Of a DNA stretch of 64,000 bases, positions 21,275-33,752 are shown piece by piece. Under the pieces are notes generated by a model. That model ran no database searches, had not been told where the DNA came from, and saw only the letters and a list, made by a program, of their open reading frames with translations. The stretch spans positions 48,685 to 112,684 of the IMG/VR virus record IMGVR_UViG_3300020171_000017; one strand, 5' to 3'. Position numbers and translations under genes: made by a program. Each line of letters starts with the position of its first letter. Position 1 is the first letter of the stretch. This DNA comes from a virus. Taxonomy: Duplodnaviria; Heunggongvirae; Uroviricota; Caudoviricetes.

Positions 21275-21345
21275 TGGCTATAATTGGAATTAAACCAATA
21301 CTCGAAACTTATGAAACTTTTGTTCTGTCGTTAAACTATATAGCT
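21275..21345 (-). tRNA. tRNA-like gene, weak anticodon stem (loop could read CAU or UCA)
   Basis: acceptor AGCTATA/TATAGCC, perfect T-arm ATTGG-TTTAATT-CCAAT; anticodon stem poorly paired. Confidence 0.3.
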
Positions 21346-21357
21346 GTTGTTGTTATT

Positions 21358-21429
21358 AGCAGAAGTGGGATTCGAACTCACAATAACTTGTTTCTAAAAC
21401 AAGTTCCTTTTCCAATTAGGATATTCTGC
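21358..21429 (-). tRNA. tRNA with anticodon UAG (Leu-decoding) but short variable arm
   Basis: acceptor GCAGAAT, anticodon stem CTTGT/ACAAG, loop TTTAGAA, T-loop TTCGAAT. Confidence 0.5.
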
Positions 21430-21448
21430 TGTTAAATTATAACTTAAA

Positions 21449-21523
21449 CGTGCTCGGAAAGAATTGAACTTTCACATTCCTATTTTAGAAGAATAGTGGC
21501 TTATCCATTTTGCCTACGAGCAC
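21449..21523 (-). tRNA. tRNA-Arg (UCU)
   Basis: acceptor GTGCTCG/CGAGCAC perfect, anticodon stem CTATT/AATAG, loop CTTCTAA, T-arm GAAAG-TTCAATT-CTTTC. Confidence 0.65.
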
Positions 21524-21528
21524 AAATC

Positions 21529-21888
21529 TTAGCAATTAACAAAATCCTCGTCGTCGCTCTCATCTTCCACTAAATCGCGCAATTCGTTTAACGTCGCTCT
21601 TAAAGCTTCTTTATTGCCATAGGCTAACATTCTATCTTCAGCTATATCGTGATCGCACTCTTCTTTACATTCAGGGCATATCGTACCTGGCACTTCTTTG
21701 AATGCTACAAAACTTGCAACGAAACATACATTGTTTTTGTTCGCTTCAGTGTATCTTTCGATTGCGTCAATTATATCTTGTAGTTCTTTACTGATTACCT
21801 CATCGTTCTCGTCTGGCATATTGTCTATCATTTTTTGTTCTCCTAAATATGTTTTGGGTAACAGTTTACCCTGATACTTTTTGCTCAA
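21529..21888 (-). CDS. hypothetical acidic protein
   Basis: 119 aa, CPECKEECDHD motif. Confidence 0.4.
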   Translation of the reverse strand: MSKKYQGKLLPKTYLGEQKMIDNMPDENDEVISKELQDIIDAIERYTEANKNNVCFVASFVAFKEVPGTICPECKEECDHDIAEDRMLAYGNKEALRATLNELRDLVEDESDDEDFVNC

Positions 21889-21938
21889 GTTTATGCGTTT
21901 TGCATATAACCACGACCATAAGTTTTAAATTTTTATTT

Positions 21939-22130
21939 TTAATATACTAAAATTTTCAAAATCCATTCACCGTAAGGATATTCTGGATTAGTTATCCATT
22001 TTTCCTTATATTGTTCTATGAATTTAACTTCATAAGTATGCATCTTTCTAATACTCTGTTTAGCTTTTTCTAATGTCCTATAAACTGTTTTAAGATGCCA
22101 CCCCTCCTCAAAAACTACATATACATACAT
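21939..22130 (-). CDS. hypothetical protein (63 aa)
   Basis: ORF in minus-strand block. Confidence 0.3.
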   Translation of the reverse strand: MYVYVVFEEGWHLKTVYRTLEKAKQSIRKMHTYEVKFIEQYKEKWITNPEYPYGEWILKILVY

Positions 22131-22372
22131 TTAAAATCCTTTCTTTTTAATGCCCAATTAGAATATCAGACTCCAATTATTTTTCGTTGTAGGCGAAGTG
22201 CCATAACCAATTAGGCGAACAGGGCAAAATTTCACGTGCAGAGAGTTAAACTTTGCAACTTAATTAATTTATAGAGCCATTTTTGCAATGATCAATTGCT
22301 ATTCACAACTCAAAAATAAAAAAAGTCAGGCACTCAATTGGTATGCATCCCTTATGCCTACGCTAAATTAAA

Positions 22373-22772
22373 GTGGATCTGGTGGGAATCGAACCCACGT
22401 CCTAAAATATCCAAATATAAAACCCTACATACATAGCTTATTATTTTCACCTTTACATTAATGATTGAATAAGCACGATCATCAATGTGCAAATCTTTAT
22501 TTGATTACTTCTATCGCAAAGATTAATCAATAGAATTAGCATAATAAATGACCTTCTTTAGCTCTTATGCCGAACTGAAGAAGGTGCTTTACCTAAATTT
22601 AGGCAAAGACTGGGTCCCCAGCAAAGATAGGTGCTACAATATCTTCAGCCGAAGCTAATAACCGCTGATTTTCGTCTGCGTTTATTTTTGTGCAAGATTT
22701 TTTACACAGCCAACTTGCGTCTGTGATATGCGTTTTATATTCGACCTATTTCAGTCTAACCCGATCAGACCC
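22373..22772 (-). ncRNA. ssrA: tmRNA-like (ssrA-like) gene, tentative
   Basis: ~400 nt without ORF; 5' GGGTCTG pairs with 3' CAGATCC adjacent to T-arm GTGGG-TTCGATT-CCCAC; internal ...AAAAAUAAAC GCA GAC GAA AAU... resembles canonical resume region, open tag frame ADENQRLL...VFA-UAA. Confidence 0.45.
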
Positions 22773-22801
22773 AAATATATTCAAAGAACAGTGTTAAATA
22801 G

Positions 22802-22888
22802 CTGTGGCGGTTGGATTCGGACCAACAATGAGAATTTCTTCTAATAGCTTAACAGGCTATCCCCTGCAACCAATTCGGGTACACCACA
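22802..22888 (-). tRNA. type-II-like tRNA (87 nt, long variable arm), identity unresolved (anticodon loop CUGUUAA)
   Basis: acceptor TGTGGTG/CGCCACA, anticodon stem ATAGC/GCTAT, variable-arm hairpin AGAA-GAAA-TTCT, T-arm GTTGG-TCCGAAT-CCAAC. Confidence 0.4.
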
Positions 22889-22893
22889 ATATC

Positions 22894-23124
22894 TTATTTT
22901 TTTCTATCTTCCATTAATTCACCAATAAACAATATTATATCACTTAAACAATCTTTATTCCAAATAGTATCATAATTTGGAAAGAATGCGTAACATCTCC
23001 AATTCACGTACCATTTTATAATCCCTAACCGATCACTGTGCATCTTCGACACCACTTCATAAACATTTGTTTTTTCTTTCTTCTCTAAAAGATTAAATGT
23101 TAAGTATTTTGATTGCATATTCAT
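22894..23124 (-). CDS. hypothetical protein (76 aa)
   Basis: small ORF, minus-strand operon. Confidence 0.3.
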   Translation of the reverse strand: MNMQSKYLTFNLLEKKEKTNVYEVVSKMHSDRLGIIKWYVNWRCYAFFPNYDTIWNKDCLSDIILFIGELMEDRKK

Positions 23125-23345
23125 CTCCGTTTAATATCAGAATAATAATAAATATCAATAAGCATAGCAACTACTGTGTAATATAATTCTTCTTGTGTGT
23201 TTATATCTAATTTTTTAAAAATATGTTTGAGGTTCTCTCTAGTATATTTTGGGATAGCACACAAATTGTCTATGGCATCAATATCTTCATATTTAATTTT
23301 TAATAATTTATGCACATAATTCCAATCTTTGAATTTTTTCTTCAT
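23121..23345 (-). CDS. hypothetical protein (74 aa)
   Basis: start/stop overlap with downstream gene. Confidence 0.3.
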   Translation of the reverse strand: MKKKFKDWNYVHKLLKIKYEDIDAIDNLCAIPKYTRENLKHIFKKLDINTQEELYYTVVAMLIDIYYYSDIKRR

Positions 23346-23359
23346 ATATCTTTTATTCT

Positions 23360-23436
23360 TGGTGCCACGACTCAGTGTCGAGCTGAGATCTCTGCGCCTT
23401 CAACGCAGCACTTTTGACCAGTTAAGTTATCGTGGC
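23360..23436 (-). tRNA. tRNA-Phe (GAA), CCA encoded
   Basis: acceptor GCCACGA/TCGTGGC-A-CCA, D-stem ACTT/AAGT, anticodon stem CTGCG/CGCAG loop TTGAAGG, T-stem CTCAG/CTGAG. Confidence 0.7.
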
Positions 23437-23715
23437 GTACATCTTATCAATTACCAACTGCATCTTCTGCCTCACAGAAGCGTTATCAGTTACTAAAACT
23501 ATTTCTTCAGGCAGATATTGTTGGTTTTGCTCTAACCAACAAAGTATATCATAACCTGTATATTCTTTGCCGTTATAGAAATCAGCCAAATCATGATCTA
23601 AGAGAAGGAGATTATATGGTTGTGATTGCAACGCCAATACGCCCTCAATATAAGACCTTGCTGTATGGGTCGCTACTTCTAAATTTCTTTTGTCATCAAT
23701 TAATAGTATGTTCAT
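23422..23715 (-). CDS. stand-alone response-regulator receiver (CheY-like) domain protein
   Basis: MNILLIDDKRN...LLLLDHDL...GYDIL pattern typical of REC domains; 97 aa. Confidence 0.45.
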   Translation of the reverse strand: MNILLIDDKRNLEVATHTARSYIEGVLALQSQPYNLLLLDHDLADFYNGKEYTGYDILCWLEQNQQYLPEEIVLVTDNASVRQKMQLVIDKMYATIT

Positions 23716-23745
23716 TTTTTATACAACTCCTTGTATGGTTTTAAA

Positions 23746-23817
23746 AGCCCCAATCGGGATTTGAACCCGAACCTTCTCGGTGGAAACGAGATATGCTGCC
23801 AAAAACACTTTTGGGGC
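23746..23817 (-). tRNA. tRNA-Gly (UCC)
   Basis: acceptor GCCCCAA/TTGGGGC, anticodon stem TCTCG/CGAGA loop TTTCCAC, T-loop TTCAAAT. Confidence 0.7.
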
Positions 23818-23833
23818 GTTGTTATTCTTTTAA

Positions 23834-23905
23834 AGCCCCCTGACAGATGTGCGCTGTCCTGTCAAGTTTACAAAACTTGTCCTTCGCTGTCTAAGGTTAG
23901 GGGGC
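23834..23905 (-). tRNA. tRNA-Thr (UGU)
   Basis: acceptor GCCCCCT/AGGGGGC perfect, anticodon stem CAAGT/ACTTG loop TTTGTAA, T-stem GACAG/CTGTC. Confidence 0.65.
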
Positions 23906-23924
23906 AGTCTTAACTTAATATCAG

Positions 23925-23995
23925 AGCCAAAGACGAGAATTAAACTCGTGCCTGAACATTGGCAATGTTCGATACTATCACTATACGACTTTGGC
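23925..23995 (-). tRNA. tRNA-Gly (GCC)
   Basis: acceptor GCCAAAG/CTTTGGC, anticodon stem GAACA/TGTTC loop TTGCCAA, T-arm ACGAG-TTTAATT-CTCGT. Confidence 0.6.
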
Positions 23996-24140
23996 ATATA
24001 TTCAGTCGAGCAGTACGATTCACACGTAACTTTTTGCACTACGGCAAACTTGCTGTATCTATTACCCTAATGCCTTGAGCCAATTCCCGGGATGCTCGGC
24101 ACCTACTCTTATAGATTTACAACACTGCTCGGATTTTCAG

Positions 24141-24214
24141 TGGAGCTGGAGCGAGTTGAACGCTCACTTATATTGATTGCAAAGCAATTGCCTTCCCAAT
24201 TAGGCAACAGCCCC
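24141..24214 (-). tRNA. tRNA-Ala (UGC), probable
   Basis: acceptor GGGGCTG/CAGCTCC (G3-U70 wobble), D-arm GCCT-AATTGGGA-AGGC, loop TTTGCAA, T-arm GAGCG-TTCAACT-CGCTC. Confidence 0.5.
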
Positions 24215-24218
24215 ATAT

Positions 24219-24692
24219 TCATTCATTTTCAATTATATGATACACAACTTCTTTACCTAATTTTCTAGCTTCTTTCGCTGTCCAACATGCACCAGATTTC
24301 ATATGATCATTAGTATGACAATGGTAACATTTATTAAATCGCATGCCATTATATCCTTTAGGATATTTATCAACTAAAATTACATGTAATATGTCTGAAT
24401 CTTTAGCAATATCTAAATTACGTTGTTTAAAACCATATTCAGCGTCCCAAATATTTTGTTTTGGGATTTTAAGATCTAATAAAAATCCAAGCCGCTTCGA
24501 TTCTTCTTCCCCATAAATGTCTATACCACCTACAGGTGAATGACCTGAAACAAAATAAATAGGTTCTATTTTTTTATTTTTTAAACAATTTAAAGAAAAA
24601 TCAATTAAAATACTTGTGAGTAATTCTTTAGCTTCTATTTTACTTTTTTCAGTGAATTTATCCTCACCATGACCTATTATGCCTATTTTCAT
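24219..24692 (-). CDS. Rossmann-fold protein (SLOG/LOG/DprA-like?), function unknown
   Basis: MKIGIIGHGED...YFVSGHSPVGGIDIYGEE pattern. Confidence 0.35.
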   Translation of the reverse strand: MKIGIIGHGEDKFTEKSKIEAKELLTSILIDFSLNCLKNKKIEPIYFVSGHSPVGGIDIYGEEESKRLGFLLDLKIPKQNIWDAEYGFKQRNLDIAKDSDILHVILVDKYPKGYNGMRFNKCYHCHTNDHMKSGACWTAKEARKLGKEVVYHIIENE

Positions 24693-24706
24693 AGTTCCTT
24701 TCTTAG

Positions 24707-24789
24707 TGCGTGCTGATGGATTTAAACCACCGAATCCCGAAGGAACCCGCTCTACAGGCGAGTGCGATTAGTCTCTCTGCCAAGCACGC
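24707..24789 (-). tRNA. tRNA-Tyr (GUA), type II
   Basis: acceptor GCGTGCT/AGCACGC, anticodon loop CTGTAGA, long variable arm TCC-TTCG-GGA, T-stem GGTGG/CCATC. Confidence 0.65.
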
Positions 24790-24798
24790 ATAATTTTT

Positions 24799-24872
24799 GG
24801 GTGGATAACGAGAAATCGAACTCGCTCCTAAAGAGCCACAATCTTCCGTGCATCCTCTACACTATATCCACC
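24799..24872 (-). tRNA. tRNA-His (GUG) with encoded G-1
   Basis: G-1 opposite discriminator C73, acceptor GTGGATA/TATCCAC, anticodon stem GAAGA/TCTTT loop TTGTGGC; T-arm slightly atypical. Confidence 0.6.
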
Positions 24873-24877
24873 ATATT

Positions 24878-25396
24878 TTATTCATTCTCAATCCCCAAGT
24901 ATTTGCACCACAATTCGTGAATAAATCCTAACTTCATTTTTAAGATCATCTTAAACCCATGTGGTTTAGTTGGTATTTTTAACAACTTCATACCTGCTTC
25001 TTTTGGTGTTCTATTATCTTTAATACCATTACAAATATTACATGCCGTCGTACAATTTTCCCAAGTTGTTTTCCCGCCCTGAGATTCTGGCAAAACATGG
25101 TCTATAGTCAATTTTCTAGGCTCGAATTTCACGCCGCAATACGAACAAGTAAAATTATCGCGAATATGTATATTATGTTTTGAGTAAGAAACAAAAGCTA
25201 TTTTTTCAAACGCTACTCGCACATATCGTTTCAATCTTATGACTGCAGGAATTTTCATAGTAAGTGAAACACTATGTACCTCCTGCTCATAAGAGGACTC
25301 AAGAATAGCTTTTTCTAAATAAATTAAATTAATAGATGATTGCCAACTACAAAACCCAAGGAACGTAAAATCTTGATTCAAAATTAAGACACGCAC
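24878..25396 (-). CDS. HNH endonuclease
   Basis: CSYCGVKFEPRKLTIDHVLPESQGGKTTWENCTTACNICNGIKDNR = HNH/McrA-type motif. Confidence 0.65.
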   Translation of the reverse strand: MRVLILNQDFTFLGFCSWQSSINLIYLEKAILESSYEQEVHSVSLTMKIPAVIRLKRYVRVAFEKIAFVSYSKHNIHIRDNFTCSYCGVKFEPRKLTIDHVLPESQGGKTTWENCTTACNICNGIKDNRTPKEAGMKLLKIPTKPHGFKMILKMKLGFIHELWCKYLGIENE

Positions 25397-25399
25397 TTC

Positions 25400-26155
25400 T
25401 TACCCTTTCCTTTCTTTCCAAAACTCTTCTAATAACTCTATTTGTAATTTATTTATCGCTTCTTGATCAGCACCATATTGTAAATCTGATTGCACATATG
25501 CCAAATCAACTAATTTCTCTATCTCTTCAGCTTTATTCAATACCCAAGTCAAATCATATTTACCTAATTTCACATCCCGTACTAAATTATGCTGCGGTAA
25601 TGGAAATGTTAAAGCCTTTTCAGTTAATAATTGGAGACATTCTAACAAAAGCCTAATCAAATGGGATCCGAACTTAACATCATATCCAAACTTTAATGCT
25701 AATTCTTTTCTACCTGTCATATTATCACGTTTAATTTCTAACTTTTCTCTTTGCGAATACGAGTATCCTTTAAAAGTATGATACGCTTTTTTAGACAAAA
25801 ACAAATGCCTATTCTCAATCAATTTATTAGCAAACTTATCTCTATATAATACGCAATTTTCTGGTACATAAAGGAACTCTATAACATTGGGATTATTTGC
25901 CATTGCTAATGGTATAAATTTCGTTAACGCATAGACCATATAATCAGTATCGCCTTTTTGATTACGAACCGATTTAGAAATCTTCTCAGACAACTCAACT
26001 TGTTCTACATTTTTAATACCTAGTACATAGTCTTTATCAGGTATGAATATGCCGCCTAAATCTTCGTCTGAAGTTTCTGTTCTCGTCCCATATAAATTCG
26101 AGCCGATTCTGATTTTATATATCGTATTTCGTAACGCCATATCTCGTTCTTGCAT
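25400..26155 (-). CDS. Pol-beta-superfamily nucleotidyltransferase
   Basis: IGSNLYGTRTETSDEDLGGIF = GS-x10-SD-x-D NTase signature followed by ~150-aa helical domain. Confidence 0.55.
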   Translation of the reverse strand: MQERDMALRNTIYKIRIGSNLYGTRTETSDEDLGGIFIPDKDYVLGIKNVEQVELSEKISKSVRNQKGDTDYMVYALTKFIPLAMANNPNVIEFLYVPENCVLYRDKFANKLIENRHLFLSKKAYHTFKGYSYSQREKLEIKRDNMTGRKELALKFGYDVKFGSHLIRLLLECLQLLTEKALTFPLPQHNLVRDVKLGKYDLTWVLNKAEEIEKLVDLAYVQSDLQYGADQEAINKLQIELLEEFWKERKG

Positions 26156-26172
26156 GTTTATAATCCTTTTAG

Positions 26173-26258
26173 TTAGGCGAGGCAGAGTCGAACTGCCGTT
26201 TCCACCCCTACAAGTTGCAACTTTACGGGTGACGACTTACCGTTAGTCGATCAGCCTA
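26173..26258 (-). tRNA. tRNA-like gene, type-II size, unusual expanded anticodon region
   Basis: T-arm GGCAG-TTCGACT-CTGCC, acceptor AGGC(T)GA/TCGCCT with one bulge, D-arm CGAC-TAACGGTAA-GTCG; stem CACCC/GGGTG encloses 19 nt containing palindrome AAGTTGCAACTT. Confidence 0.4.
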
Positions 26259-26266
26259 AATTTTTA

Positions 26267-26341
26267 TCGGCACAGGAAGACTCGAACTTCCACTATTCAT
26301 CGCCCCAAACGATGCGGTCTACCAATTTGACCAATGTGCCG
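26267..26341 (-). tRNA. tRNA-Pro (UGG)
   Basis: C1-G72 acceptor CGGCACA/TGTGCCG, D-arm GGTC-AAATTGGTA-GACC, anticodon stem CATCG/CGATG loop TTTGGGG, T-arm GGAAG-TTCGAGT-CTTCC. Confidence 0.7.
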
Positions 26342-26686
26342 TTATATCTTTTTATTTCTTCCTAATTTTTTATCAATTTCTAACCTATCAAAACCGTAAT
26401 ATTTATCACCCTTAATAAATGAAGTAGAATTCGATAGATAGACAAGAGAAGATAATAAACTACGTAATTCACAAAATAAACCTTCACTTATATCAAGTTT
26501 TTTACCAATATCAGATTTATCTAAAAATATCTTTAAAGTATTTACAATCACTCTAAATCTTTCTTCAGTTTTAATAGGCAGTACAAATGCCTCATCTATA
26601 GCGTAACCTAGTGCATGAATCTCTTCTGCCTCATCTTTATCGAGTTTCTCACTATCAATATGAATTAATCTAACCTCATCTTTCAT
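26342..26686 (-). CDS. hypothetical protein (114 aa)
   Basis: ORF ends one base from tRNA-Pro; minus-strand operon. Confidence 0.4.
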   Translation of the reverse strand: MKDEVRLIHIDSEKLDKDEAEEIHALGYAIDEAFVLPIKTEERFRVIVNTLKIFLDKSDIGKKLDISEGLFCELRSLLSSLVYLSNSTSFIKGDKYYGFDRLEIDKKLGRNKKI

Positions 26687-26710
26687 TTCTTCATCTCCAT
26701 TTAAAGTAGT

Positions 26711-28288
26711 TCATAATTTATCTTTATTCTGTTCTCTAAATTCTTTCAATTCCTTATCCCGCCTTTCTTCGATTTCTTTAGGAAAGCCACGATTTAAACA
26801 TCTTGGGCAAGCAGCTTCTTTTGTTTTGTTTTTAGGGTCTTGCGTAGTTTGAATATAACCACTACATATTATAACTTCATCCGCAATATAATTTTTGCAC
26901 AATTTTCTAGAAACATAATAACTACACTTTTCCCAATCTTCTTTTTTCATTTTTTCATCTCCATTTTTTTCTTCTACCCACTTCAGATACACTTCTTCAT
27001 TCTCACCTAACTTCAGTTCACCATTAATCACTGCATTTAGCACCATCTCTTTAATCTCACCTACCTGCCTTACCTGACCGAGATTAAAATATCGCATAAT
27101 GGCGTTACCATTTAAGGGCGATTTTGGTGATTCTTTAAAGTTTCGTTGTTCTTCAATACGGCGTTTGAGATCCATGAGAGAATCTAAATGCTTTTTGATT
27201 GAAACGGGATTGTGAGAAGTTATGTCACTTTCACTCAATTGCAATAATTTTCCACAATATTCTCCAGTTTCAAAAATAAAACGCCTAACAGCACTATCTG
27301 AAAAAGATTCGGTGTACGTATTAACACGCATATGATTTTTCACCAGGTATGTGATATCTTTTATCATTTTAGTTGGTAGACCTAATCGCTGTAAGATTGA
27401 GTAAGTCATCCGAGATCCGATTTCATCGTGATCATAAAAATGTATTTTACCATTCTCATTAGAGAAGGTACATTGCTTTCCAATATCGTGAAATAATGCA
27501 CTAAAACGAAGTACTAAATCTTTTGGAGTATTCTTTACAACATCAATTGTATGGAGTAAAGCATCTTTATGGTGAAACTCACTTTCTTGTTTTATAGATT
27601 TTAATGCTACTAATTCAGGTATAAAATAATTTATAAGCCGATACTCAAATAAATCATTGAGAGCAAGATCGACATTATCGGTCATTAATATTTTGTTTAC
27701 TTCGTCTAAAATCCTTTCTTTTGGCAAAATTAACAAACGTTTTGCGCATGATTTTAATGCCATTTTCACTTCTTCACTATATTCAAAACCTAACTTCGCT
27801 CGAAAGCGCACGGCGCGGATTAATCTTAACGGATCGTCAGCGAAAGATTTTCCTGCCTGTATAGGTGTAGAAATTATTTTATTCTTAAGGTGCTCTACGC
27901 CCCCAAATAAATCCTTGATTTCCCTCTTACTATCTAAGCACAAACAATTAATTGTGAAATCCCTTCTATGCAGATCATCCTCTATTGTTTGTCCCCACTC
28001 GACTACGGGGTTCCTATTACTTCGTTGATAAGATATATCCCGCCTATATGTCGTGCACTCCACCTTATATCCATCCACTATCGCACCTACAGTCCCGAAC
28101 GCTATGCCTACGGTGTAAGTTTTATACCCCGCCTTCTGCAATATCTCTAAAGTAACTTCAGGCACGCAGGAAACCGCGAAATCTAAATCTTGAGTTTCGA
28201 GACCTAAAAGTTGATCCCTGCACGCACCGCCGACTAAATATATAGAGTGACCATTCTTACTAAATAACTCAAATATTTTATTTTTCAT
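26711..28288 (-). CDS. cca: tRNA nucleotidyltransferase (CCA-adding enzyme) with HD phosphohydrolase domain
   Basis: GGACRDQLLGLETQDLDFAV head motif; HD motif HHKDALLHT...FSALFHDIGK; 525 aa. Confidence 0.8.
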   Translation of the reverse strand: MKNKIFELFSKNGHSIYLVGGACRDQLLGLETQDLDFAVSCVPEVTLEILQKAGYKTYTVGIAFGTVGAIVDGYKVECTTYRRDISYQRSNRNPVVEWGQTIEDDLHRRDFTINCLCLDSKREIKDLFGGVEHLKNKIISTPIQAGKSFADDPLRLIRAVRFRAKLGFEYSEEVKMALKSCAKRLLILPKERILDEVNKILMTDNVDLALNDLFEYRLINYFIPELVALKSIKQESEFHHKDALLHTIDVVKNTPKDLVLRFSALFHDIGKQCTFSNENGKIHFYDHDEIGSRMTYSILQRLGLPTKMIKDITYLVKNHMRVNTYTESFSDSAVRRFIFETGEYCGKLLQLSESDITSHNPVSIKKHLDSLMDLKRRIEEQRNFKESPKSPLNGNAIMRYFNLGQVRQVGEIKEMVLNAVINGELKLGENEEVYLKWVEEKNGDEKMKKEDWEKCSYYVSRKLCKNYIADEVIICSGYIQTTQDPKNKTKEAACPRCLNRGFPKEIEERRDKELKEFREQNKDKL

Positions 28289-28290
28289 TT

Positions 28291-28716
28291 TTAGAATAAA
28301 AGATTTTGTTCTAACGCTAAATTATATATGTCTTGCATAGGAATTCGACAAAAATTAGGTATTTCTCTAAATTCGTACATAGAAGAATAGATTAACTGAA
28401 TAGCTTCAAATAACCCCACATTTCTCGCAATTAAAGCTAAAAGAGCTATATGTGGACTTCTAGTCACACAACATTGACAATGTATAAATATATCATCAGT
28501 CCCTTTTAACTTTTCATATAATTCATATAAAGGAATATTCATTTTATATAAACTATCACCATCTTTGTAATCTATTTCAATATCGTTATTTCTAAGCATA
28601 CTACATCTTTGATCTGGGTAATCATTTCGCCATATGTGGATTGTTCGCATAATTGAATTACAACATGATTCTTTGTCCCCTAACCAAATATTTTTATTTA
28701 GATAAATTTTTTTCAT
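28291..28716 (-). CDS. cysteine phosphatase (dual-specificity/PTP-like P-loop)
   Basis: IHCQCCVTRSP matches HC-x5-R-S/T catalytic loop; 141 aa. Confidence 0.5.
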   Translation of the reverse strand: MKKIYLNKNIWLGDKESCCNSIMRTIHIWRNDYPDQRCSMLRNNDIEIDYKDGDSLYKMNIPLYELYEKLKGTDDIFIHCQCCVTRSPHIALLALIARNVGLFEAIQLIYSSMYEFREIPNFCRIPMQDIYNLALEQNLLF

Positions 28717-28988
28717 TTTAAAAATAGCTCATGCATTTCTATCTTCCAATCTTTAATTTCATCGAAACTATCAAAACATATTGGATACATTCTGCTATCA
28801 CCTTCTTTTTTTATGCACCAGAAACCTTTGTTCCAACCGCTTTTAATTATCATTTTAGGCGAAAGCTGAAAGTCTGTCTTTCTTACTGATTCAGACACAA
28901 TTAATGTAGTGCCTACTAATTGAAAGTCTGCTGGTAAATCTTTAATTTTAATAGTTTTCATTTCGGGACCTTTCTTTTTGGCTACCAC
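28713..28988 (-). CDS. hypothetical protein (91 aa)
   Basis: overlapping stop/start with phosphatase gene. Confidence 0.35.
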   Translation of the reverse strand: MVAKKKGPEMKTIKIKDLPADFQLVGTTLIVSESVRKTDFQLSPKMIIKSGWNKGFWCIKKEGDSRMYPICFDSFDEIKDWKIEMHELFLK

Positions 28989-29053
28989 ATAAGGATCCGA
29001 TCCTTAATCTTCAGCTTCAGAGGCTGACGAATTACCAGTTATTCGATGTGGTA
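28982..29053 (-). tRNA. tRNA-Gln (CUG)
   Basis: U1-A72 + discriminator G73 (Gln identity), anticodon stem TCAGC/GCTGA loop CTCTGAA, T-stem TAAGG/CCTTA. Confidence 0.7.
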
Positions 29054-29056
29054 ATA

Positions 29057-29251
29057 TTATACAATATAATGCACAAAAGCTTCTATTTTGCCACAATCAC
29101 ATCGATGCATAATTTCATATTGCACATCAAAAAGATATTCATCTAATTTTGCAATAATCTTTTCTAAATGAGAGTGGTTTTTAGCTTTAATCCAACATCC
29201 TGAACGTTCTGTCATTTTTAATCTCCAATCATAGCTACGGGAGATGAGCAC
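29057..29251 (-). CDS. hypothetical protein (64 aa, Cys/His-containing)
   Basis: small ORF between tRNAs. Confidence 0.3.
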   Translation of the reverse strand: MLISRSYDWRLKMTERSGCWIKAKNHSHLEKIIAKLDEYLFDVQYEIMHRCDCGKIEAFVHYIV

Positions 29252-29306
29252 GATTCATCATTAACAGCTTCAAAGGCTGCTTGCCTACCTATTAGCAGAT
29301 CCCGTA
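29235..29306 (-). tRNA. tRNA-Gln (UUG)
   Basis: U1-A72, G73, anticodon stem GCAGC/GCTGT loop CTTTGAA, T-stem GATGA/TCATC (non-canonical T-loop ATCGTGC). Confidence 0.6.
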
Positions 29307-29312
29307 ATTCTG

Positions 29313-29385
29313 TGGGTGCAGAAAGCCTTAAACTTTCAATCTATCGGGTAAGAACCAATTGCTTTATCAATTAAGCTATGCACCC
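29313..29385 (-). tRNA. tRNA-Lys (CUU)
   Basis: acceptor GGGTGCA/TGCACCC, D-arm GCTT-AATTGATA-AAGC, anticodon loop TTCTTAC, T-arm GAAAG-TTTAAGG-CTTTC. Confidence 0.6.
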
Positions 29386-29398
29386 GTTATTTCCTTAA

Positions 29399-29469
29399 TG
29401 AGCGTACCAGAATTCGAATCTGGATAGACACATTAAAAGTGTGTTAATCTGCCCTTGATTTATACGCCC
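29399..29469 (-). tRNA. tRNA-Lys (UUU)
   Basis: acceptor GGGCGTA/TACGCTC, anticodon stem ACACA/TGTGT loop CTTTTAA, T-arm CCAGA-TTCGAAT-TCTGG. Confidence 0.7.
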
Positions 29470-29481
29470 GTTAACTATTAG

Positions 29482-29555
29482 AGGCGATAACTGGATTCGG
29501 ACCAGTGATTGTACTGTTTTGCAGACAGTTCGATTAGCCACTCTCGCACACCGCC
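29482..29555 (-). tRNA. tRNA-Cys (GCA)
   Basis: acceptor GGCGGTG/TATCGCC (two G-U), discriminator U73, anticodon stem ACTGT/ACAGT loop CTGCAAA, T-arm ACTGG-TCCGAAT-CCAGT. Confidence 0.6.
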
Positions 29556-29562
29556 ATAACCT

Positions 29563-29901
29563 TCAATACAACGCCCAACCGCTGCCTTTTTCTTTTCTTG
29601 GTTTACTGCCTTTACCGCCAGATTTTGTGTTATATGTATCGTTATTTTCTATAAAATCTCGGTTAACCAATTCTTGCTCTTTATTCTCCATATCTATTTT
29701 GTTGTTATAGATAAACAAGATCTCTTTCTTAAAGTTATGTATGCCATAATATTTATGGGCATTTTTCATTGTGATGCCAGAACCTTTGTAATCGTCATTT
29801 ACATCTTCGGTCGCATGCTTACCGATGTATATCTTGCTGTTAATCAGATTTGTGATCTTATAGACTATGTAGTATGTCATAATATTTTTAAGCACAGGCA
29901 C
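29563..29901 (-). CDS. GIY-YIG homing endonuclease (stand-alone catalytic domain)
   Basis: YIVYKITNLINSKIYIGKH ... R ... E ... N motifs of GIY-YIG; 112 aa; embedded in tRNA array. Confidence 0.7.
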   Translation of the reverse strand: MPVLKNIMTYYIVYKITNLINSKIYIGKHATEDVNDDYKGSGITMKNAHKYYGIHNFKKEILFIYNNKIDMENKEQELVNRDFIENNDTYNTKSGGKGSKPRKEKGSGWALY

Positions 29902-29946
29902 CAGGACTTTAACCTAGGCCAACTGTTCCAATATTCTTCAACATTA

Positions 29947-30021
29947 GCGCCTCCTGTCGAATTTAAATCGACGATATCTTGATCGACAATCAAGTGCATT
30001 GAATCGCTATGCTAAGGAGGC
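29947..30021 (-). tRNA. tRNA-Asp (GUC)
   Basis: acceptor GCCTCCT/AGGAGGC, G73, D-arm GCAT/ATGC, anticodon stem CTTGA/TCAAG loop TTGTCGA, T-stem GTCGA/TCGAC. Confidence 0.7.
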
Positions 30022-30031
30022 AATTTTCAAG

Positions 30032-30102
30032 TGACGCTACGGGGAATTGGACCCCGACATTCTGGTCGAAAGCCAGATATACTGCCTTTATATGATAGCG
30101 CC
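30032..30102 (-). tRNA. tRNA-Glu (UUC)
   Basis: acceptor GGCGCTA/TAGCGTC, anticodon stem TCTGG/CCAGA loop CTTTCGA, T-stem CGGGG/CCCCG. Confidence 0.65.
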
Positions 30103-30349
30103 ATAAAAACAAAAAAACCGATTCAGTTTTAGTAGTTCGTAGCTTTTAATCTATGCTGCTGATTGCTACTTACTACTTTGTTGAGTCGGTATAATTCGCA
30201 ATCAGCACAGATAGTTTAGGCATAATGCCTGTCGAACATAAAAAGGCTCTATGCCAAAACTTGCGGTTTTGGTTCGGCGTTTCTTGTATCTGTTCTGGCG
30301 TTTTATGTTGTAACATTTTCTATGCTTTCGTTACGATGTGAAATTTTAG

Positions 30350-30421
30350 TAGCGGGTTACGAAATCGAATCGTATTAAAGTTGGTTATGAGCCAACCAAG
30401 ATTCCAAACCTTCCACCCGCA
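30350..30421 (-). tRNA. tRNA-Met (CAU) with unpaired 1:72 (U.U)
   Basis: acceptor (T)GCGGGT/ACCCGC(T), D-stem AAGG/TCTT, anticodon stem GTTGG/CCAAC loop CTCATAA, T-arm TACGA-TTCGATT-TCGTA. Confidence 0.55.
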
Positions 30422-30498
30422 AATATAATAAACCTATAGCTCAAATATATAAAATGCTTGCCTATTAATAATATATTATAGCACAATTATACAAAAAG

Positions 30499-30927
30499 TC
30501 AAGGCAAAACTTCAACTTTTTTCTCTTTAAATTTTCTATCTCTTTTATCAGCTAGAAACAATCTTAACTTATACATCTCACCATTAGTGAATAGTCCGAT
30601 ATATCGTTTTTCTTTCTTTTTAGGGTCTTTACTTCTGCTTATAAACGATATTCTATCTTTATCGGTAAACGCTTTTAGAACTTGTGTCGCATGAATGTAA
30701 GTCTTATTAAATTTCTGTTTTATCTTCTCGCGTTCTAATACTTTCGGCAACCGTTTTTGTATATAATACCGATGGTTCGATAGTATTTGAGTAATCTTGA
30801 TTCTCAACGCTTTAATCTGTAAAGATTGATTATCTAGCCGTACATACAATTGAGCCAAGGTTTTTGGATCTTCTACATAATACGGCTCGCTATAAACCGA
30901 TTCAACTAATTTTGGTTTCTGGTTCAC
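30499..30927 (-). CDS. hypothetical basic protein (142 aa)
   Basis: Lys/Arg-rich; overlaps downstream gene start. Confidence 0.4.
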   Translation of the reverse strand: MNQKPKLVESVYSEPYYVEDPKTLAQLYVRLDNQSLQIKALRIKITQILSNHRYYIQKRLPKVLEREKIKQKFNKTYIHATQVLKAFTDKDRISFISRSKDPKKKEKRYIGLFTNGEMYKLRLFLADKRDRKFKEKKVEVLP

Positions 30928-31291
30928 TACTTTTGTCTCCTAAAATTTTAGTTACTACTTCTGGCCAGGTTGTTAGAGATATGACGTCTTTTCCCCCCAC
31001 GTAAAAGTCAGCTATAGGCTTACCTGCCGCCGCGAAATCTATGCCTGTAATTAGATCATAAGGAATCTTATTCAGATCTAGAAATGCTTTCATTTCAGCC
31101 AGAGATTTTTCTACAGTACCAACCTTTTTGCGATAGGCATTAGTACGATTTGAATCGATAAGAATAAAACAATTATTATTCTTTAAAGTTTCTAGTGCTT
31201 CTTTAGTACCGTCAATAAGAACCAATTGATCATCAACTTTATTGGCAATCGTGCCATCGAAATCCACAGCTAAAAATGTTTTTGTTTTCAC
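30902..31291 (-). CDS. HAD-superfamily phosphatase (nucleotidase / polynucleotide 3'-phosphatase-like)
   Basis: motif I LAVDFDGTI (DxDGT), 129 aa. Confidence 0.55.
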   Translation of the reverse strand: MKTKTFLAVDFDGTIANKVDDQLVLIDGTKEALETLKNNNCFILIDSNRTNAYRKKVGTVEKSLAEMKAFLDLNKIPYDLITGIDFAAAGKPIADFYVGGKDVISLTTWPEVVTKILGDKSSEPETKIS

Positions 31292-31436
31292 GGATATCTC
31301 CGATTATATTAAATTATAATGGTGCTGGCAGTTGTCTGCAACAATATACCCTGCGACAATATAAGGCAAAACGCCATTTTTTTTTGCTACGGGTCAATAT
31401 ATTATTAGGCTACAACGCCACAGCACCGTTTAATCC

Positions 31437-32543
31437 TTATTTACTATCCTCACTCGATAATAACACACCACCAGCCTTGCCAATTTGCATAAAAGTTTTT
31501 TCAGGTAAAACCGTTACTTTGTCTAGAAGTGCTCGCATCGTTTCGGCTTGGTATTTCTTAATTTCTACTTCAGCACGGCGTGCACCAGATTCGCCTTCAT
31601 ACAAAGAAACACTTTCTAATTTTTTAACTTCGGCTCTAGCCTTACCAACTGCAAGTTCACCGCTTGCTCTTGCCAAGTTAGAGTCTCTTTCGGCTTCTGC
31701 ATCAAGCACAGTCTTTCGCGCTTTGGCTTCAGCGTCTGTAACTTGGGTGATTTTAGAAGCTTCGGCTATCTGCCTAGCTTCTTCTACTTTAGCTTGGGAC
31801 ATAGCAAAAATTCTTTTGGCTTCTTCTTGCGCGGCTAAAGTTTCTTCAACTTTACGTAACTTTTGTTGTATAGCAATTTGTTTGCCTGCTATTTCTGCTT
31901 CATATACAGGATCAAGATAAACTTTATATAAAATTGTATTTTCTATAACTAAACCTCGATCGATCAAAACGTGATTAGCTTTCAGTGATTCTTCGATGTC
32001 ATTTTTAAATTTTACAAAACCTTCGCCAGAATAAATTGTTAAAGCTGTTCTTGGTCTCGCGATCTCATTAACTACATCTATAATCTCTCTTTTTAAAACC
32101 ACTGATTCATAAGTCTTACCTATGCCTTGTTTATGTAAAGTAATCGCTTTGTCTGGATTTAAATGATAATTAACCGACATAGCAATCCATGCCTTTTGAC
32201 CGCCGCCTTCACCAATATCTAAAACTATGCGTGGATATTCAGATTCAGAATTAACAGTCACATCGTCAAAAGTTATCTTTTGTGTTCCTATATTATATTT
32301 ATGCACATCTAATATGAAATTATTATATATATGTGTGCCTGGCAACATTAAATTATTTTTTACGCCTGACCAATCTTGTTGCACGCCTACCTCATTACCT
32401 TCAAGTTTAATAAACGCAAAAAATCCTATAAAGGTGAAAAGTATTAATAAACTTATTACGCCTATTGCGATTAACGTACCGAGTTTCATTTTCATTGTTA
32501 TCCCCTTTCTTTTTATAAGTTTCATTTTTATTGTTTTCCGCAT
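31437..32543 (-). CDS. SPFH/band-7 (prohibitin/HflK-like) membrane protein
   Basis: N-terminal TM helix then SPFH-like core and long Ala/Glu-rich coiled-coil tail; 368 aa. Confidence 0.55.
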   Translation of the reverse strand: MRKTIKMKLIKRKGITMKMKLGTLIAIGVISLLILFTFIGFFAFIKLEGNEVGVQQDWSGVKNNLMLPGTHIYNNFILDVHKYNIGTQKITFDDVTVNSESEYPRIVLDIGEGGGQKAWIAMSVNYHLNPDKAITLHKQGIGKTYESVVLKREIIDVVNEIARPRTALTIYSGEGFVKFKNDIEESLKANHVLIDRGLVIENTILYKVYLDPVYEAEIAGKQIAIQQKLRKVEETLAAQEEAKRIFAMSQAKVEEARQIAEASKITQVTDAEAKARKTVLDAEAERDSNLARASGELAVGKARAEVKKLESVSLYEGESGARRAEVEIKKYQAETMRALLDKVTVLPEKTFMQIGKAGGVLLSSEDSK

Positions 32544-32643: not shown

Positions 32644-32859
32644 TTACTTTACCTCCTTCCAACTAAACCAGCCCCAAACGGCTAGACCAGTATATATCGC
32701 AAACAAACAACCTTGCTCTGGTATGCCTTTTTTAAAATCAATTATCATCCACAAAAAATTTGTGCACATCCAAATCAAAAAACAAATGCGTTTTTTTTTG
32801 ATGTTAAAAATAACACCGATCAGAGATAGAATCGTTAATAACCAGAACATAGATTTCAC
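32644..32859 (-). CDS. small membrane protein (71 aa)
   Basis: two hydrophobic segments. Confidence 0.35.
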   Translation of the reverse strand: MKSMFWLLTILSLIGVIFNIKKKRICFLIWMCTNFLWMIIDFKKGIPEQGCLFAIYTGLAVWGWFSWKEVK

Positions 32860-33485: not shown

Positions 33486-33752
33486 TTATTCCACTATCAT
33501 CCAATCTTTCGCAAACAAATCACCGTCAGTCACAATCCATTGGTAATTGTTACCGTCGGCTTTGTGCAACGATAACGTATCTTTATTCAAAAATCCATAA
33601 AGTTTAGTGTCGTCCCATTCGAACCTAGTGACCTTTTTGCCGCGCATTATCGCTTTTATCGCTTCTGGAAAACTATGGCTGTCTTTAGTTTTTGGAGTTT
33701 TATTTAATGTCACAAAAATCTCCTTTCTATTCCGTTCTGACCGGTAAAGCAA
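33486..33752 (-). CDS. hypothetical protein (88 aa)
   Basis: ORF in compact operon. Confidence 0.4.
   Translation of the reverse strand: MLYRSERNRKEIFVTLNKTPKTKDSHSFPEAIKAIMRGKKVTRFEWDDTKLYGFLNKDTLSLHKADGNNYQWIVTDGDLFAKDWMIVE

Follow-up and report, generated by a model that had tools for sequence, protein, structure and literature searches.

A tRNA/tmRNA island with RlaP, cREC and phosphatase genes in a large uncultivated phage

The RlaP family of nucleotidyltransferases owes its name to its linkage to RNA ligases, and in E. coli Cca, the HD domain acts both as a phosphatase and as a 2′,3′-cyclic phosphodiesterase. Large-phage tRNA arrays with RlaP, CCA-adding enzyme and cREC genes were already described in 2021; the jumbo-phage toolkit is read as a countermeasure against host attacks on tRNA, it is built around RNA ligases (RtcB or ATP-grasp) together with PNK kinases, and the distribution of RlaP is said to mirror that of the ligases (Iyer, Anantharaman, Krishnan, Burroughs & Aravind 2021, PMC7824862). 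The T4 member of the RlaP family is NrdC.11; the family adds 1-2 nt in vitro to a damaged RNA 3′-OH, and the nucleotidyltransferase of the bacterial RtcB-RlaP-RtcA operons adds 1-2 NMP at such an end (Carruthers, Fatma & Huang 2025 preprint, PMC12776372). For the cREC domain, the predicted role is 2′,3′-cyclic phosphate processing (PMC7824862, PMC9503650). Replacement of cleaved host tRNAs by phage tRNAs is established, as for T5 tRNA-Lys against PARIS (PMC11464382), T5 tRNAs against a retron and PrrC (PMC11555353), and mycobacteriophage tRNAs (PMC10264068).

Here, we describe a locus of a large uncultivated phage within a 64-kb window (the whole stretch of DNA that was analysed), which belongs to a contig of at least 135 kb. 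The tRNA and tmRNA genes, called with ARAGORN and Rfam, form an array at 21275-30421, which exceeds the coordinates first given to the locus (24219-31291):

21275-21345, minus strand, AT-rich tRNA with CAU anticodon (Met/Ile2-type), Rfam tRNA 48.1 bits, ARAGORN only at relaxed threshold
21357-21430, minus strand, tRNA-Leu(UAG), without encoded CCA
21448-21524, minus strand, tRNA-Arg(UCU), without encoded CCA
22371-22772, minus strand, phage tmRNA, tag peptide ADENQRLLASAEDIVAPIFAGDPVFA, Rfam tmRNA 142.5 bits, E 1.6e-56, also ARAGORN
22801-22888, minus strand, tRNA-Asn(GUU), 88 nt, unusual long variable arm, without encoded CCA, called by ARAGORN, no Rfam report at gathering threshold
23360-23436, minus strand, tRNA-Phe(GAA), CCA encoded
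23746-23817, minus strand, tRNA-Gly(UCC), without encoded CCA
23924-23995, minus strand, tRNA-Gly(GCC), without encoded CCA
24140-24214, minus strand, tRNA-Ala(UGC), without encoded CCA
24706-24789, minus strand, tRNA-Tyr(GUA), without encoded CCA
24799-24871, minus strand, tRNA-His(GUG), without encoded CCA
26267-26341, minus strand, tRNA-Pro(UGG), without encoded CCA
28979-29053, minus strand, tRNA-Gln(CUG), CCA encoded
29234-29306, minus strand, tRNA-Gln(UUG)
29312-29385, minus strand, tRNA-Lys(CUU), without encoded CCA
29399-29469, minus strand, tRNA-Lys(UUU), without encoded CCA
29481-29555, minus strand, tRNA-Cys(GCA), without encoded CCA
29947-30021, minus strand, tRNA-Asp(GUC)
30031-30102, minus strand, tRNA-Glu(UUC)
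30349-30421, minus strand, tRNA-Met(CAU)

The 19 tRNA genes cover 15 amino acids, and only two of them, Phe(GAA) and Gln(CUG), encode the CCA end; in the 3′ flank of the CAU tRNA at 21275-21345, the sequence after the discriminator A is CTA. Both tRNA-Lys isoacceptors (UUU and CUU) are present, as the initial annotation had it. They had been called duplicated, but they are dissimilar genes within a broad set, in which Gln (CUG/UUG) and Gly (UCC/GCC) are likewise paired; with 15 amino acids represented in this set, tRNA-Lys does not stand out. A near-consensus promoter-like site was also observed at 30502-30475, just upstream of tRNA-Met, with a total count of such sites not above that of shuffles.

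All five protein-coding genes of the initial annotation were recovered on the minus strand at the same coordinates in the ORF listing, and profile searches confirmed their domains. The first of them lies amid the tRNA genes, with a small neighbour:

26711-28288, minus strand, class-II CCA-adding enzyme with HD(IG) domain, 525 aa, matched in Pfam, PHROG and NCBIfam
26342-26686, minus strand, acidic protein, 114 aa, adjoining the CCA gene on its downstream side, unmatched in Pfam, PHROG and NCBIfam

The assignment of the enzyme is based on Pfam (PolyA_pol head, E 4.9e-29; RNA-binding domain, 2e-14; HD, 5.1e-5) and NCBIfam (CCA tRNA nucleotidyltransferase, 2.1e-102; HDIG, 9.1e-7), the score of 343 bits being under the NCBIfam equivalog cutoff of 438.8. 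Because 17/19 tRNA genes lack the 3′-CCA needed for charging, an ordinary maturation role is suggested: the enzyme would mainly mature the phage's own tRNAs, and its HD domain may additionally heal damaged 3′ ends.

A syntenic relative (L025; L038 on a 175-kb contig) has CCA encoded in 1/29 tRNA genes. Its CCA ortholog, 442 aa long, is 61% identical across residues 1-441 and misses a Cys-rich C-terminal extension of ~85 aa. The relative keeps DnaN, the HAD gene with its neighbour p142, tRNAs, CCA, HNH, SLOG and tmRNA (the last in L038), including a common Cys-Lys-Lys-Gln-Gln tRNA block, and is without RlaP, DSP, cREC, Band-7 and Tad2. The gene set is, in other words, not conserved. With slightly better than even confidence, we read the locus as a translation-supply island (tRNA and tmRNA) of a large phage, in which the CCA enzyme mainly serves the maturation of the phage's own tRNAs and which is an insertion hotspot with acquired cargo. 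The homing endonuclease, RlaP and cREC genes are the following:

24878-25396, minus strand, HNH homing-type endonuclease, 172 aa, Pfam HNH_5 9.6e-15, phrog_16726 1.6e-35
29563-29901, minus strand, GIY-YIG homing endonuclease fragment, 112 aa, phrog_314 homing endonuclease 4.3e-29, SegE_GIY-YIG 1e-4
25400-26155, minus strand, RlaP-family Pol-beta nucleotidyltransferase, 251 aa, Pfam RlaP PF10127, phrog_388
23422-23715, minus strand, cREC protein, receiver-like, 97 aa, Pfam cREC_REC PF20274, phrog_1479

The two homing endonucleases (HNH, GIY-YIG) interspersed among the tRNAs would mark the island as an insertion hotspot; the HNH gene has an ortholog at the same position in the relative (L025/L038; 59% identical). 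The cargo gained in this lineage would comprise RlaP and cREC, two genes of the known phage RNA-repair toolkit. The RlaP protein (IRIGSNLYGTRTETSDEDL), which contains the GS...DxD motif, matched PF10127 with E 1.8e-22 (80.7 bits vs a cutoff of 23) and phrog_388 with 1.4e-54, and its gene is located between tRNA-Pro and the HNH endonuclease, 0.6 kb from the CCA-adding enzyme. The cREC protein matched PF20274 with E 1.4e-15 (58.1 bits vs a cutoff of 27) and retains the Rec-fold acidic residues (ILLIDD, LLLLDHDL); its gene, within the tRNA array, falls outside the region initially annotated, and its predicted activity would be to open 2′,3′-cyclic phosphates. CCA and RlaP also adjoin in L011, L017 and L021-23, three further independent lineages of viruses, of which L017 also has a tRNA/tmRNA island. 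RlaP, CCA/HD and cREC could jointly restore tRNA 3′ ends without a ligase; to re-seal anticodon loops, a ligase from the host or encoded elsewhere would be required.

The gene immediately upstream of the CCA gene encodes the 141-aa protein, confirmed as a true dual-specificity cysteine phosphatase (DSP), and is preceded on its strand by two small ORFs:

28291-28716, minus strand, dual-specificity cysteine phosphatase, 141 aa, P-loop HCQCCVTRS
28713-28988, minus strand, 91-aa ORF (p91), no function call from Pfam or PHROG
29057-29251, minus strand, 64-aa ORF between the two tRNA-Gln genes

The DSP stop codon is 2 nt ahead of the CCA start codon and p91 overlaps the DSP start by 4 nt, a tight coupling that favours shared function over random cargo. 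The annotated GTG start of p91 overlaps tRNA-Gln by 10 nt, thus its true start is probably an internal Met. The PTP-SAK domain, defined in an RNA-repair protein, gave weak matches in 11/55 DSP-family members, and the DSP-family neighbourhoods examined elsewhere contained no RNA-repair genes. As the DSP folds among the matches act on proteins, lipids, glucans and RNA, the substrate cannot be read from the fold. Among viral structures, those of giant-virus DSPs come nearest, and elsewhere the family genes lie among small early-type hypothetical genes; both observations would suit a protein phosphatase used in takeover to rewire the phospho-signalling of the host, like the DSPs of eukaryotic viruses, with no relation to tRNA and only an accidental adjacency to the CCA gene. 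The tight coupling to that gene and a substrate not fixed by fold alone argue against this explanation, which we consider very unlikely. In the translation-supply island that we favour, the DSP, co-transcribed with the CCA gene, would be further cargo, together with the HAD of BT0820 type and the nucleotide/ADPR-binding SLOG domain. These genes and others at the edges of the array are:

30902-31291, minus strand, small HAD phosphatase, BT0820/SPO1 gp30.2-type, 129 aa
30499-30927, minus strand, basic protein, 142 aa (p142), no function call from Pfam, PHROG or NCBIfam
24219-24692, minus strand, SLOG-fold protein, YpsA/DprA-like, 157 aa (SLOG157)
31437-32543, minus strand, SPFH/Band-7 membrane protein, 368 aa, adjoining the HAD gene, Pfam Band_7 4.6e-11
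20638-21261, minus strand, metallophosphoesterase, calcineurin-like, 207 aa, bordering the array downstream, Pfam Metallophos E 7e-7, phrog_1649 E 2.3e-20

The metallophosphoesterase is a possible phosphoesterase. The HAD protein matched the profile of PDB 2obb (BT0820) with E 4.8e-12 and that of Pnkp1 only with E 0.22. Motif I (DFDGT), invariant across the family, is retained along with K91 and D95, and in motif IV the second acidic pair is changed from DD to GG. Its SPO1 homolog lies within a nucleotide/replication gene cluster, and p142 is kept beside HAD in the relative (49% identity). Assignment to pathways unrelated to RNA ends was approached for the HAD protein, and not for the nucleotidyltransferase.

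The 157-aa protein, annotated as Rossmann-fold, is a SLOG domain with a Cys/His insert (C122, H124, C125, H130, C136), whose unannotated family includes >160 clusters on large phage contigs. In L003 and L026 its homologs sit in replication modules (DnaB, primase or PolB adjacent), a setting at least as compatible with a DprA-like DNA role as with an ADPR role. This bears on the possibility of an NAD+/ADP-ribose counter-defence set, in which SLOG would bind or degrade cADPR-type signals, cREC would open cyclic phosphates of ADPR derivatives, DSP and/or HAD would dephosphorylate ADPR-phosphate toxins or signals, and a Tad2-like protein would sponge Thoeris signals, the tRNA array being a mere landing site. 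In its favour, a PnuC NMN-transporter fragment lies 2-3 kb from HAD, as does a Tad2-like domain (E 2.3e-10), and NAPRTase and nicotinamidase are encoded near the Band-7/ligase cluster of the related phage L003. Conversely, none of the usual companions (Macro, NADAR, Nudix or sirtuin; PMC9503650) was seen in the window, no ADPR role is known for RlaP, and the replication setting of the SLOG157 homologs also disfavours such a set; we judge it quite unlikely. In our preferred reading, the SPFH/Band-7 and Tad2-like anti-Thoeris proteins would be adjoining cargo of the island.

The initial annotation had noticed no KxDG ligase, and indeed searches of the 64-kb window revealed neither an RNA ligase nor a kinase of PNK type, with Pfam scans incomplete for ORFs under ~90 aa and for a few of 90-180 aa; as the window takes in 64 kb of the contig (≥135 kb), both could be encoded elsewhere. 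The same annotation had proposed an integrated replace-and-repair module against anticodon nucleases (PrrC, RloC, PARIS). Here DSP and/or HAD would heal the ends, RlaP would restore nucleotides, a phage ligase encoded elsewhere or host RtcB would reseal, and the phage tRNA-Lys would replace unrepairable molecules. Part of this proposal stands: RlaP and cREC belong to RNA-repair-associated families (PMC7824862, PMC12776372), and phage-tRNA replacement is documented (PMC11464382, PMC10264068). The co-transcription of DSP with the CCA gene, the weak PTP-SAK matches in its family and the genomic company of Band-7, which adjoins RNA_ligase in L003 and is grouped with RlaP, CCA and ligase in L021-23 and here adjoins HAD, also point in this direction. 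Other parts lacked support. Besides the ligase and kinase missing from the window and the BT0820/gp30.2 type and altered motif IV of HAD, no RNA-repair link could be demonstrated for DSP, HAD and SLOG157, none of whose families lay 10 kb or less from RlaP in 18 further viral loci or co-occurred with CCA elsewhere; SLOG and DSP genes also had no RNA-repair neighbours at other loci. The CCA enzyme can be explained more simply, the relative keeps both tRNA-Lys despite having no RlaP, DSP or cREC, and Lys receives no emphasis over Gln or Gly. We therefore regard the integrated module as unlikely.

Compared with known systems, the locus resembles the jumbo-phage toolkit (PMC7824862) in combining many phage tRNAs with RlaP, a CCA-adding enzyme, cREC and standalone HAD or calcineurin-type phosphatases, but no ligase or kinase was seen in this window, its HAD is BT0820-type and not identified as PNK-HAD or SAK-type, and the DSP and the present SLOG family are not part of the toolkit as described. 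With the T4 PNKP and Rnl1 repair of PrrC-cleaved tRNA-Lys it shares phage-encoded enzymes for damaged tRNA, an RlaP homolog and a HAD-fold phosphatase; unlike in T4, neither a P-loop polynucleotide kinase nor a KxDG ligase was detected in the window by Pfam and other scans, and the 129-aa HAD stands alone, is of another family and has a degenerate motif IV. The bacterial RtcB-RlaP-RtcA operons (Pseudomonas; PMC12776372) contain the same nucleotidyltransferase family, which here does not adjoin RtcB or RtcA. The CCA enzyme has the class-II head, RNA-binding and HD(IG) domains of the multifunctional E. coli Cca type, but is phage-encoded, lies amid CCA-less tRNA genes and bears the extra Cys-rich extension. 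Finally, Lys is not singled out, and the tRNA-Lys genes and the broad set of tRNAs might substitute for cleaved tRNAs of the host, as in the defence-evading tRNA sets of other phages.

The window is AT-rich (about 34% GC) and phage-like. On the plus strand, the large proteins form a block without significant family matches, which is probably structural; the window also encodes a sliding clamp, a primase-MCM-like helicase, DNA methyltransferases, a Mom-like protein, and homing endonucleases. None of the GenBank phages is closely related to it, and a metagenomic contig of 135,529 bp carries the same proteins. The minus strand harbors 19 tRNA genes (18 detected by ARAGORN, one more by Rfam and relaxed ARAGORN) and a tmRNA gene; the island supplies tRNAs and a tmRNA. 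The five ORFs that the initial annotation had combined into a tRNA replace-and-repair module do lie between these RNA genes. The promoter scan returned 56 sites against 58.9 expected from shuffles and the terminator scan 8 against 7.4; since these counts equal the shuffled expectation, the scans do not define the transcription units. The features of the island and its surroundings are:

21275-30421, minus strand: island of 19 tRNA genes and a tmRNA gene
22371-22772, minus strand: tmRNA gene
22801-22888, minus strand: tRNA-Asn(GUU) gene
23422-23715, minus strand: cREC, a 97-aa receiver-like protein
24219-24692, minus strand: 157-aa protein of the SLOG-plus-Cys/His family
26711-26970, minus strand: Cys-rich C-terminal extension (residues about 440-525) of the 525-aa CCA-adding enzyme
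32644-32859, minus strand: 71-aa ORF matching PnuC
33486-33752, minus strand: 88-aa protein with a Tad2-like (Thoeris anti-defence 2) domain
35318-37213, minus strand: 631-aa ORF beside the sliding clamp gene
37831-38373, 47758-48600, 55468-56055, and 44899-45780, minus strand: DNA-modification/repair set (Mom-like protein, D12-class N6-adenine methyltransferase, MT-A70 methyltransferase, and spore-photoproduct-lyase-like radical SAM protein)
41632-42651 and 62954-63973, minus strand: 339-aa RRXRR-domain (HNH-type) paralogs

The proposed class-II CCA-adding enzyme with an HD domain is supported by its motifs and domains. Its head shows the GGxxRD and RRD signatures (LVGGACRDQ and TYRRD), accompanied by the motif DDPLRLIRAVRF, and Pfam matched the PolyA_pol head (PF01743, E = 4.9e-29), the RNA-binding domain (PF12627, E = 2e-14), and the HD domain (E = 5.1e-5). 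Among the NCBIfam models, the CCA tRNA nucleotidyltransferases were the best (2.1e-102), far before PcnB (7.3e-39), with a score under the equivalog cutoff (TIGR02692, 343.2 bits vs 438.8); addition of CCA, as opposed to CC-, A-, or poly(A)-addition, is its putative specificity. Reading the three bases after the discriminator, we found an encoded 3'-CCA in only 2/19 tRNA genes of the window, tRNA-Phe and tRNA-Gln(CUG), and in 1/29 of the syntenic relative (loci L025 and L038, the latter on a 175-kb contig). Since the phage tRNA genes mostly lack an encoded CCA and could not otherwise be aminoacylated, CCA addition is required, and the enzyme has an ordinary job, the finishing of the phage's own tRNAs. 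A locus search seeded with this enzyme returned only three close relatives. Its C-terminal extension has the pattern C..C...C....CPRC followed by a Lys/Glu-rich tail, is missing from the 442-aa ortholog of the relative, and may be a zinc module.

The RNA genes present some further peculiarities. Both in the window and in L025 (4846-14664), the base next after the discriminator is usually C, and a 3' trailer C-T-A occurs in 7/19 tRNA genes of the window and 15/29 of the relative; this conserved trailer stands in place of CCA and may be a processing signal. The tRNA-Asn(GUU), below the Rfam gathering threshold, has a length of 88 nt and, unusually for Asn, a long variable arm. In the relative, tRNA-Asn is normal at 75 nt but tRNA-Lys(UUU) reaches 80 nt, and the tRNA-Asn of another viral locus, L016, has 89 nt. 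The tag of the phage-encoded tmRNA, ADENQRLLASAEDIVAPIFAGDPVFA, is long and atypical; that of the relative (L038 14275-14667) has the related tag ADENTRLLAEANAIVAHVFADAPVVATI, and the tRNA island of locus L017 also includes a tmRNA.

Phages are documented to replace cleaved host tRNA-Lys with tRNAs of their own (PMC11464382, PMC11555353, PMC10264068), and a duplicated tRNA-Lys had been taken as part of the module. This claim fails: the two Lys genes differ in anticodon and their sequences are dissimilar, which rules out a duplication. The Lys pair is paralleled by Gln and Gly pairs, and the Lys-Lys-Gln-Gln block also occurs in the relative, which has neither cREC, nor the 251-aa nucleotidyltransferase, nor the 141-aa cysteine phosphatase (DSP) of the window. 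Nothing in the array singles out Lys.

The 251-aa nucleotidyltransferase carries the expected GS-x10-SDED catalytic motif and belongs to the RNA-ligase-associated Pol-beta family RlaP (PF10127, 80.7 bits vs a gathering cutoff of 23, E = 1.8e-22; phrog_388, E = 1.4e-54), with relatives in 1,602 GenBank phage records by tblastn. The family, which includes T4 NrdC.11, was named after its linkage to RNA ligases, and for two Pseudomonas members a 2025 preprint shows extension of damaged RNA by one or two NMPs at the 3'-OH (PMC12776372). As regards this linkage, no ligase was found in the 64-kb window; the linkage is seen in loci L021-23 and not in L008 or L017. The closest relative, in L008 (50% identity), is placed among replication genes. 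CCA and RlaP genes are also adjacent in L011, L017, and L021-23, so that this adjacency recurs in several large-phage lineages. L017 also has the tRNA/tmRNA island, with a P-loop AAA_28/KTI12-like protein among its other neighbours and no ligase, while in L021-23 Band-7, RlaP, CCA, and RNA ligase genes all fall within 8 kb. At least one tRNA lies within 10 kb in 9 of 18 RlaP loci, and in the related phage locus L003 an RNA ligase adjoins Band-7. RlaP, CCA, and tRNA genes thus form a loose recurring association, to which Band-7 belongs to a lesser extent; DSP, SLOG, and the HAD protein are outside it. The CCA-RlaP adjacency hints that RlaP may work not only with ligases but also alongside CCA addition, to rebuild 3' ends. 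The concepts of RlaP, SAK, and Band-7 in RNA repair reportedly originate from Burroughs & Aravind 2016 (NAR).

Two side observations concern these loci. In L017 (7794-8231), a nucleoside-deoxyribosyltransferase-like Rossmannoid protein is next to the CCA gene, and similar proteins of L025 (1373-1876) and L038 (3869-4372) are near the HAD gene at the edge of the tRNA island; the window has SLOG in its array. At L003 1-7535, in a 215-kb related phage, one cluster includes NAPRTase, nicotinamidase-like isochorismatase, Band-7, a pilin-like N_methyl protein, an RNA ligase (PF09414), LemA, and TPM phosphatase; it is a candidate for an RNA-ligase system linked to Band-7/LemA, with NAD+ salvage.

The presence of a T4-like pathway was evaluated through its sealing and kinase components. 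That no KxDG ligase is visible holds for all stop-to-stop ORFs of at least 150 aa in the window. The Pfam scan, which covered all ORFs of at least 200 aa except the plus-strand ORF 31276-31920, antisense to the Band-7 gene, returned no RNA ligase, RtcB, or PNK match, and tblastn with the Rnl-type ligase of L003 gave a best E value of 0.099. As for a P-loop polynucleotide 5'-kinase, no kinase model matched the scanned ORFs. Among stop-to-stop ORFs of at least 60 aa, Walker-A motifs occur in four only. Two of these are the primase-helicase and, by chance, the sliding clamp; the others are a plus-strand ORF of 235 aa within the structural block and an ORF of 62 aa that runs antisense to a structural gene.

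The comparison with the syntenic relative (L025/L038) bears on the conservation of the gene set. The two share, at protein identities of 49-68%, a backbone of DnaN, HAD with the 142-aa ORF p142, tRNAs, GIY-YIG, the Cys-Lys-Lys-Gln-Gln tRNA block, CCA, tRNA-Pro, HNH, His-Tyr tRNAs, SLOG, more tRNAs, and tmRNA. RlaP, DSP, cREC, Band-7, and Tad2 are all absent from the relative. Furthermore, profile HMMs applied to 18 other viral loci found no member of the DSP, SLOG157 (157-aa SLOG), or BT0820-HAD families within 10 kb of RlaP. The lack of ligase and kinase, the ordinary job of the CCA enzyme, and the unconserved gene set argue against a complete T4-like pathway in the window.

Several neighbours of the array were absent from the initial annotation. 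The first is cREC (PF20274, 58.1 bits vs a cutoff of 27, E = 1.4e-15), a putative cyclic-phosphate processing receiver domain with predicted catalysis; inspection placed D7, D8, D40, and D42 at Rec-like positions, and the family is further discussed in PMC9503650. An SPFH/Band-7 protein adjoins the HAD gene, a metallophosphoesterase closes the array, and just past Band-7 come a PnuC fragment and a Tad2-like anti-Thoeris domain. The Tad2-like gene (Pfam E = 2.3e-10, over the gathering cutoff) has the sliding clamp gene on one side and the Band-7/HAD genes on the other; the relative has no Tad2, and the position is taken there by two proteins, one of 508 aa and one deoxyribosyltransferase-like. 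The PnuC match covers the last 62 of the 175 positions of the NMN-transporter model (E = 2.5e-8); the ORF is either a fragment or a membrane protein of minimal size. In combination with Tad2-like, SLOG, and cREC, it gives the neighbourhood an NAD+/ADPR flavour. Farther away, the 631-aa ORF has no Pfam or PHROG match, and the two RRXRR paralogs, about 21 kb apart and with Pfam E values of about 1e-28 each, are probably mobile endonucleases.

The cysteine phosphatase was correctly recognized: its HCx5R(S/T) P-loop is present as HCQCCVTRS, in a DSP fold. Word-indexed search returned two relatives vs 84 by exhaustive HMMER search, overturning the view of the protein as an orphan and defining a distinct small DSP family that counts about 84 clusters (50% identity) and occurs on phage-like contigs. 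All 55 aligned members share H79 and C80, at least 90% of them share R86 (consensus VHCAAGxTRSP), and 45/55 match DSPc. D52 (in Y-K-D-G), 28 residues before C80, is invariant in the 10 closest members and D or E in the wider-family rows shown, and is a candidate general acid. Among predicted viral structures, the nearest neighbours of DSP come from giant viruses of eukaryotes and from a few viruses of archaea. DSP was not closer to RNA-specific DSPs (baculovirus BVP, PIR1/DUSP11, capping-enzyme triphosphatase, and PTP-SAK) than to protein- or lipid-directed ones, and the fold leaves the substrate undecided. The loci of the family contain no RlaP, CCA, cREC, or ligase. The CCA start codon follows the DSP stop codon by 2 nt, and the 91-aa ORF p91 overlaps the DSP start by 4 nt; an RNA-end role is kept alive because of this tight coupling to the CCA gene, the sole such feature.

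The 157-aa protein is not a generic Rossmann RNA-modifying enzyme, a possibility that we rejected. Its fold is Rossmannoid, of the SLOG type: strand 1 is followed by a Gly-rich loop, and a conserved GGxD...E region is present. The protein also carries a conserved Cys/His insert. Its family (homologs P0003-P0122) exceeds 160 clusters at 90% identity, has no Pfam model or source annotation, and is found on phage contigs up to 215 kb, often in replication modules. Elsewhere, the homologs lie between DnaC-like and DnaB/primase genes or beside family-B DNA polymerase. Binding of ADPR-type signals or of DNA is the more likely function.

The GenBank phage relatives of the 129-aa HAD protein are SPO1-group gp30.2 proteins only, and a locus search seeded with it gave no hits. 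A six-sequence profile matched PDB 2obb (BT0820) at 4.8e-12, with GmhB (0.03) and Pnkp1 (0.22) both non-significant, and the match of the protein to HAD-SF-IIIA (E = 1.9e-4) is under the cutoff. All six aligned sequences keep DFDGT, K91, and D95; in motif IV, the second acidic pair is DD in the SPO1 group, GG in the window protein, and GH in the L025 ortholog. The SPO1 gp30.2 gene is placed between the dUMP hydroxymethylase/replication gene 30 and DNA polymerase, and action on nucleotides is the more likely. Single-sequence phmmer searches of PDB gave nothing significant for DSP, SLOG, HAD, or RlaP; profiles and structure prediction are needed for these proteins.

The replace-and-repair reading is therefore retained only in part: RlaP and cREC do belong to a known toolkit, but no ligase or kinase was found in the window, the CCA enzyme has an ordinary role, and the gene set is unconserved. 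We infer that damaged tRNA 3' ends could be restored with no ligase involved, by RlaP, cREC, the HD domain, and the CCA enzyme acting together: RlaP would add 3' nucleotides, cREC and the HD domain would remove cyclic phosphate or phosphate, and the CCA enzyme would complete the end. For cleaved anticodon loops to be sealed again, a ligase would have to come from another part of the genome or be supplied by the host.

A broader alternative, which we regard as improbable, is that the operon of p91, DSP, CCA, and the 114-aa ORF p114, with RlaP and cREC, forms a ligase-independent pathway for unblocking and rebuilding tRNA 3' ends, aimed at defences that attack these ends. DSP, and/or the HD domain and cREC, would strip 3'-phosphate, 2',3'-cyclic phosphate, or 3'-pyrophosphate from acceptor ends; RlaP would then restore one or two missing nucleotides and the CCA enzyme would rebuild CCA. 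Such a pathway would counter defences hitting the 3' end rather than the anticodon, acceptor-stem nucleases among them; toxSAS/CapRel pyrophosphorylate the CCA end (PMC9712102, bioRxiv 10.1101/2021.04.30.441581), and MenT-type enzymes extend the 3' end (PMC10435456). If it were true, phages would have in the DSP family (about 84 clusters) their first known cysteine phosphatase directed at RNA 3' ends; a DSP with activity on blocked tRNA 3' ends would represent a novel kind of counter-defence enzyme.

If the preferred reading holds, that of tRNA supply with a possible 3'-end restoration by RlaP, cREC, and the CCA enzyme, the value of these results is mostly annotation. A phage CCA enzyme in a tRNA array would be explained first by CCA-less phage tRNA genes, and conserved linkage should be demonstrated before genes between phage tRNAs are taken for a single pathway. 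Genuinely new pieces are the small DSP family and the SLOG-plus-Cys/His family, both unannotated, and the DSP-CCA operon. As a whole, the island resembles the RNA-repair and tRNA-provisioning toolkit of jumbo phages, which comprises cREC, RlaP, CCA, standalone HADs, calcineurin-like phosphoesterases, and large tRNA sets (Iyer et al. 2021, PMC7824862): it is likewise a large-phage tRNA island with RlaP, CCA, and cREC.
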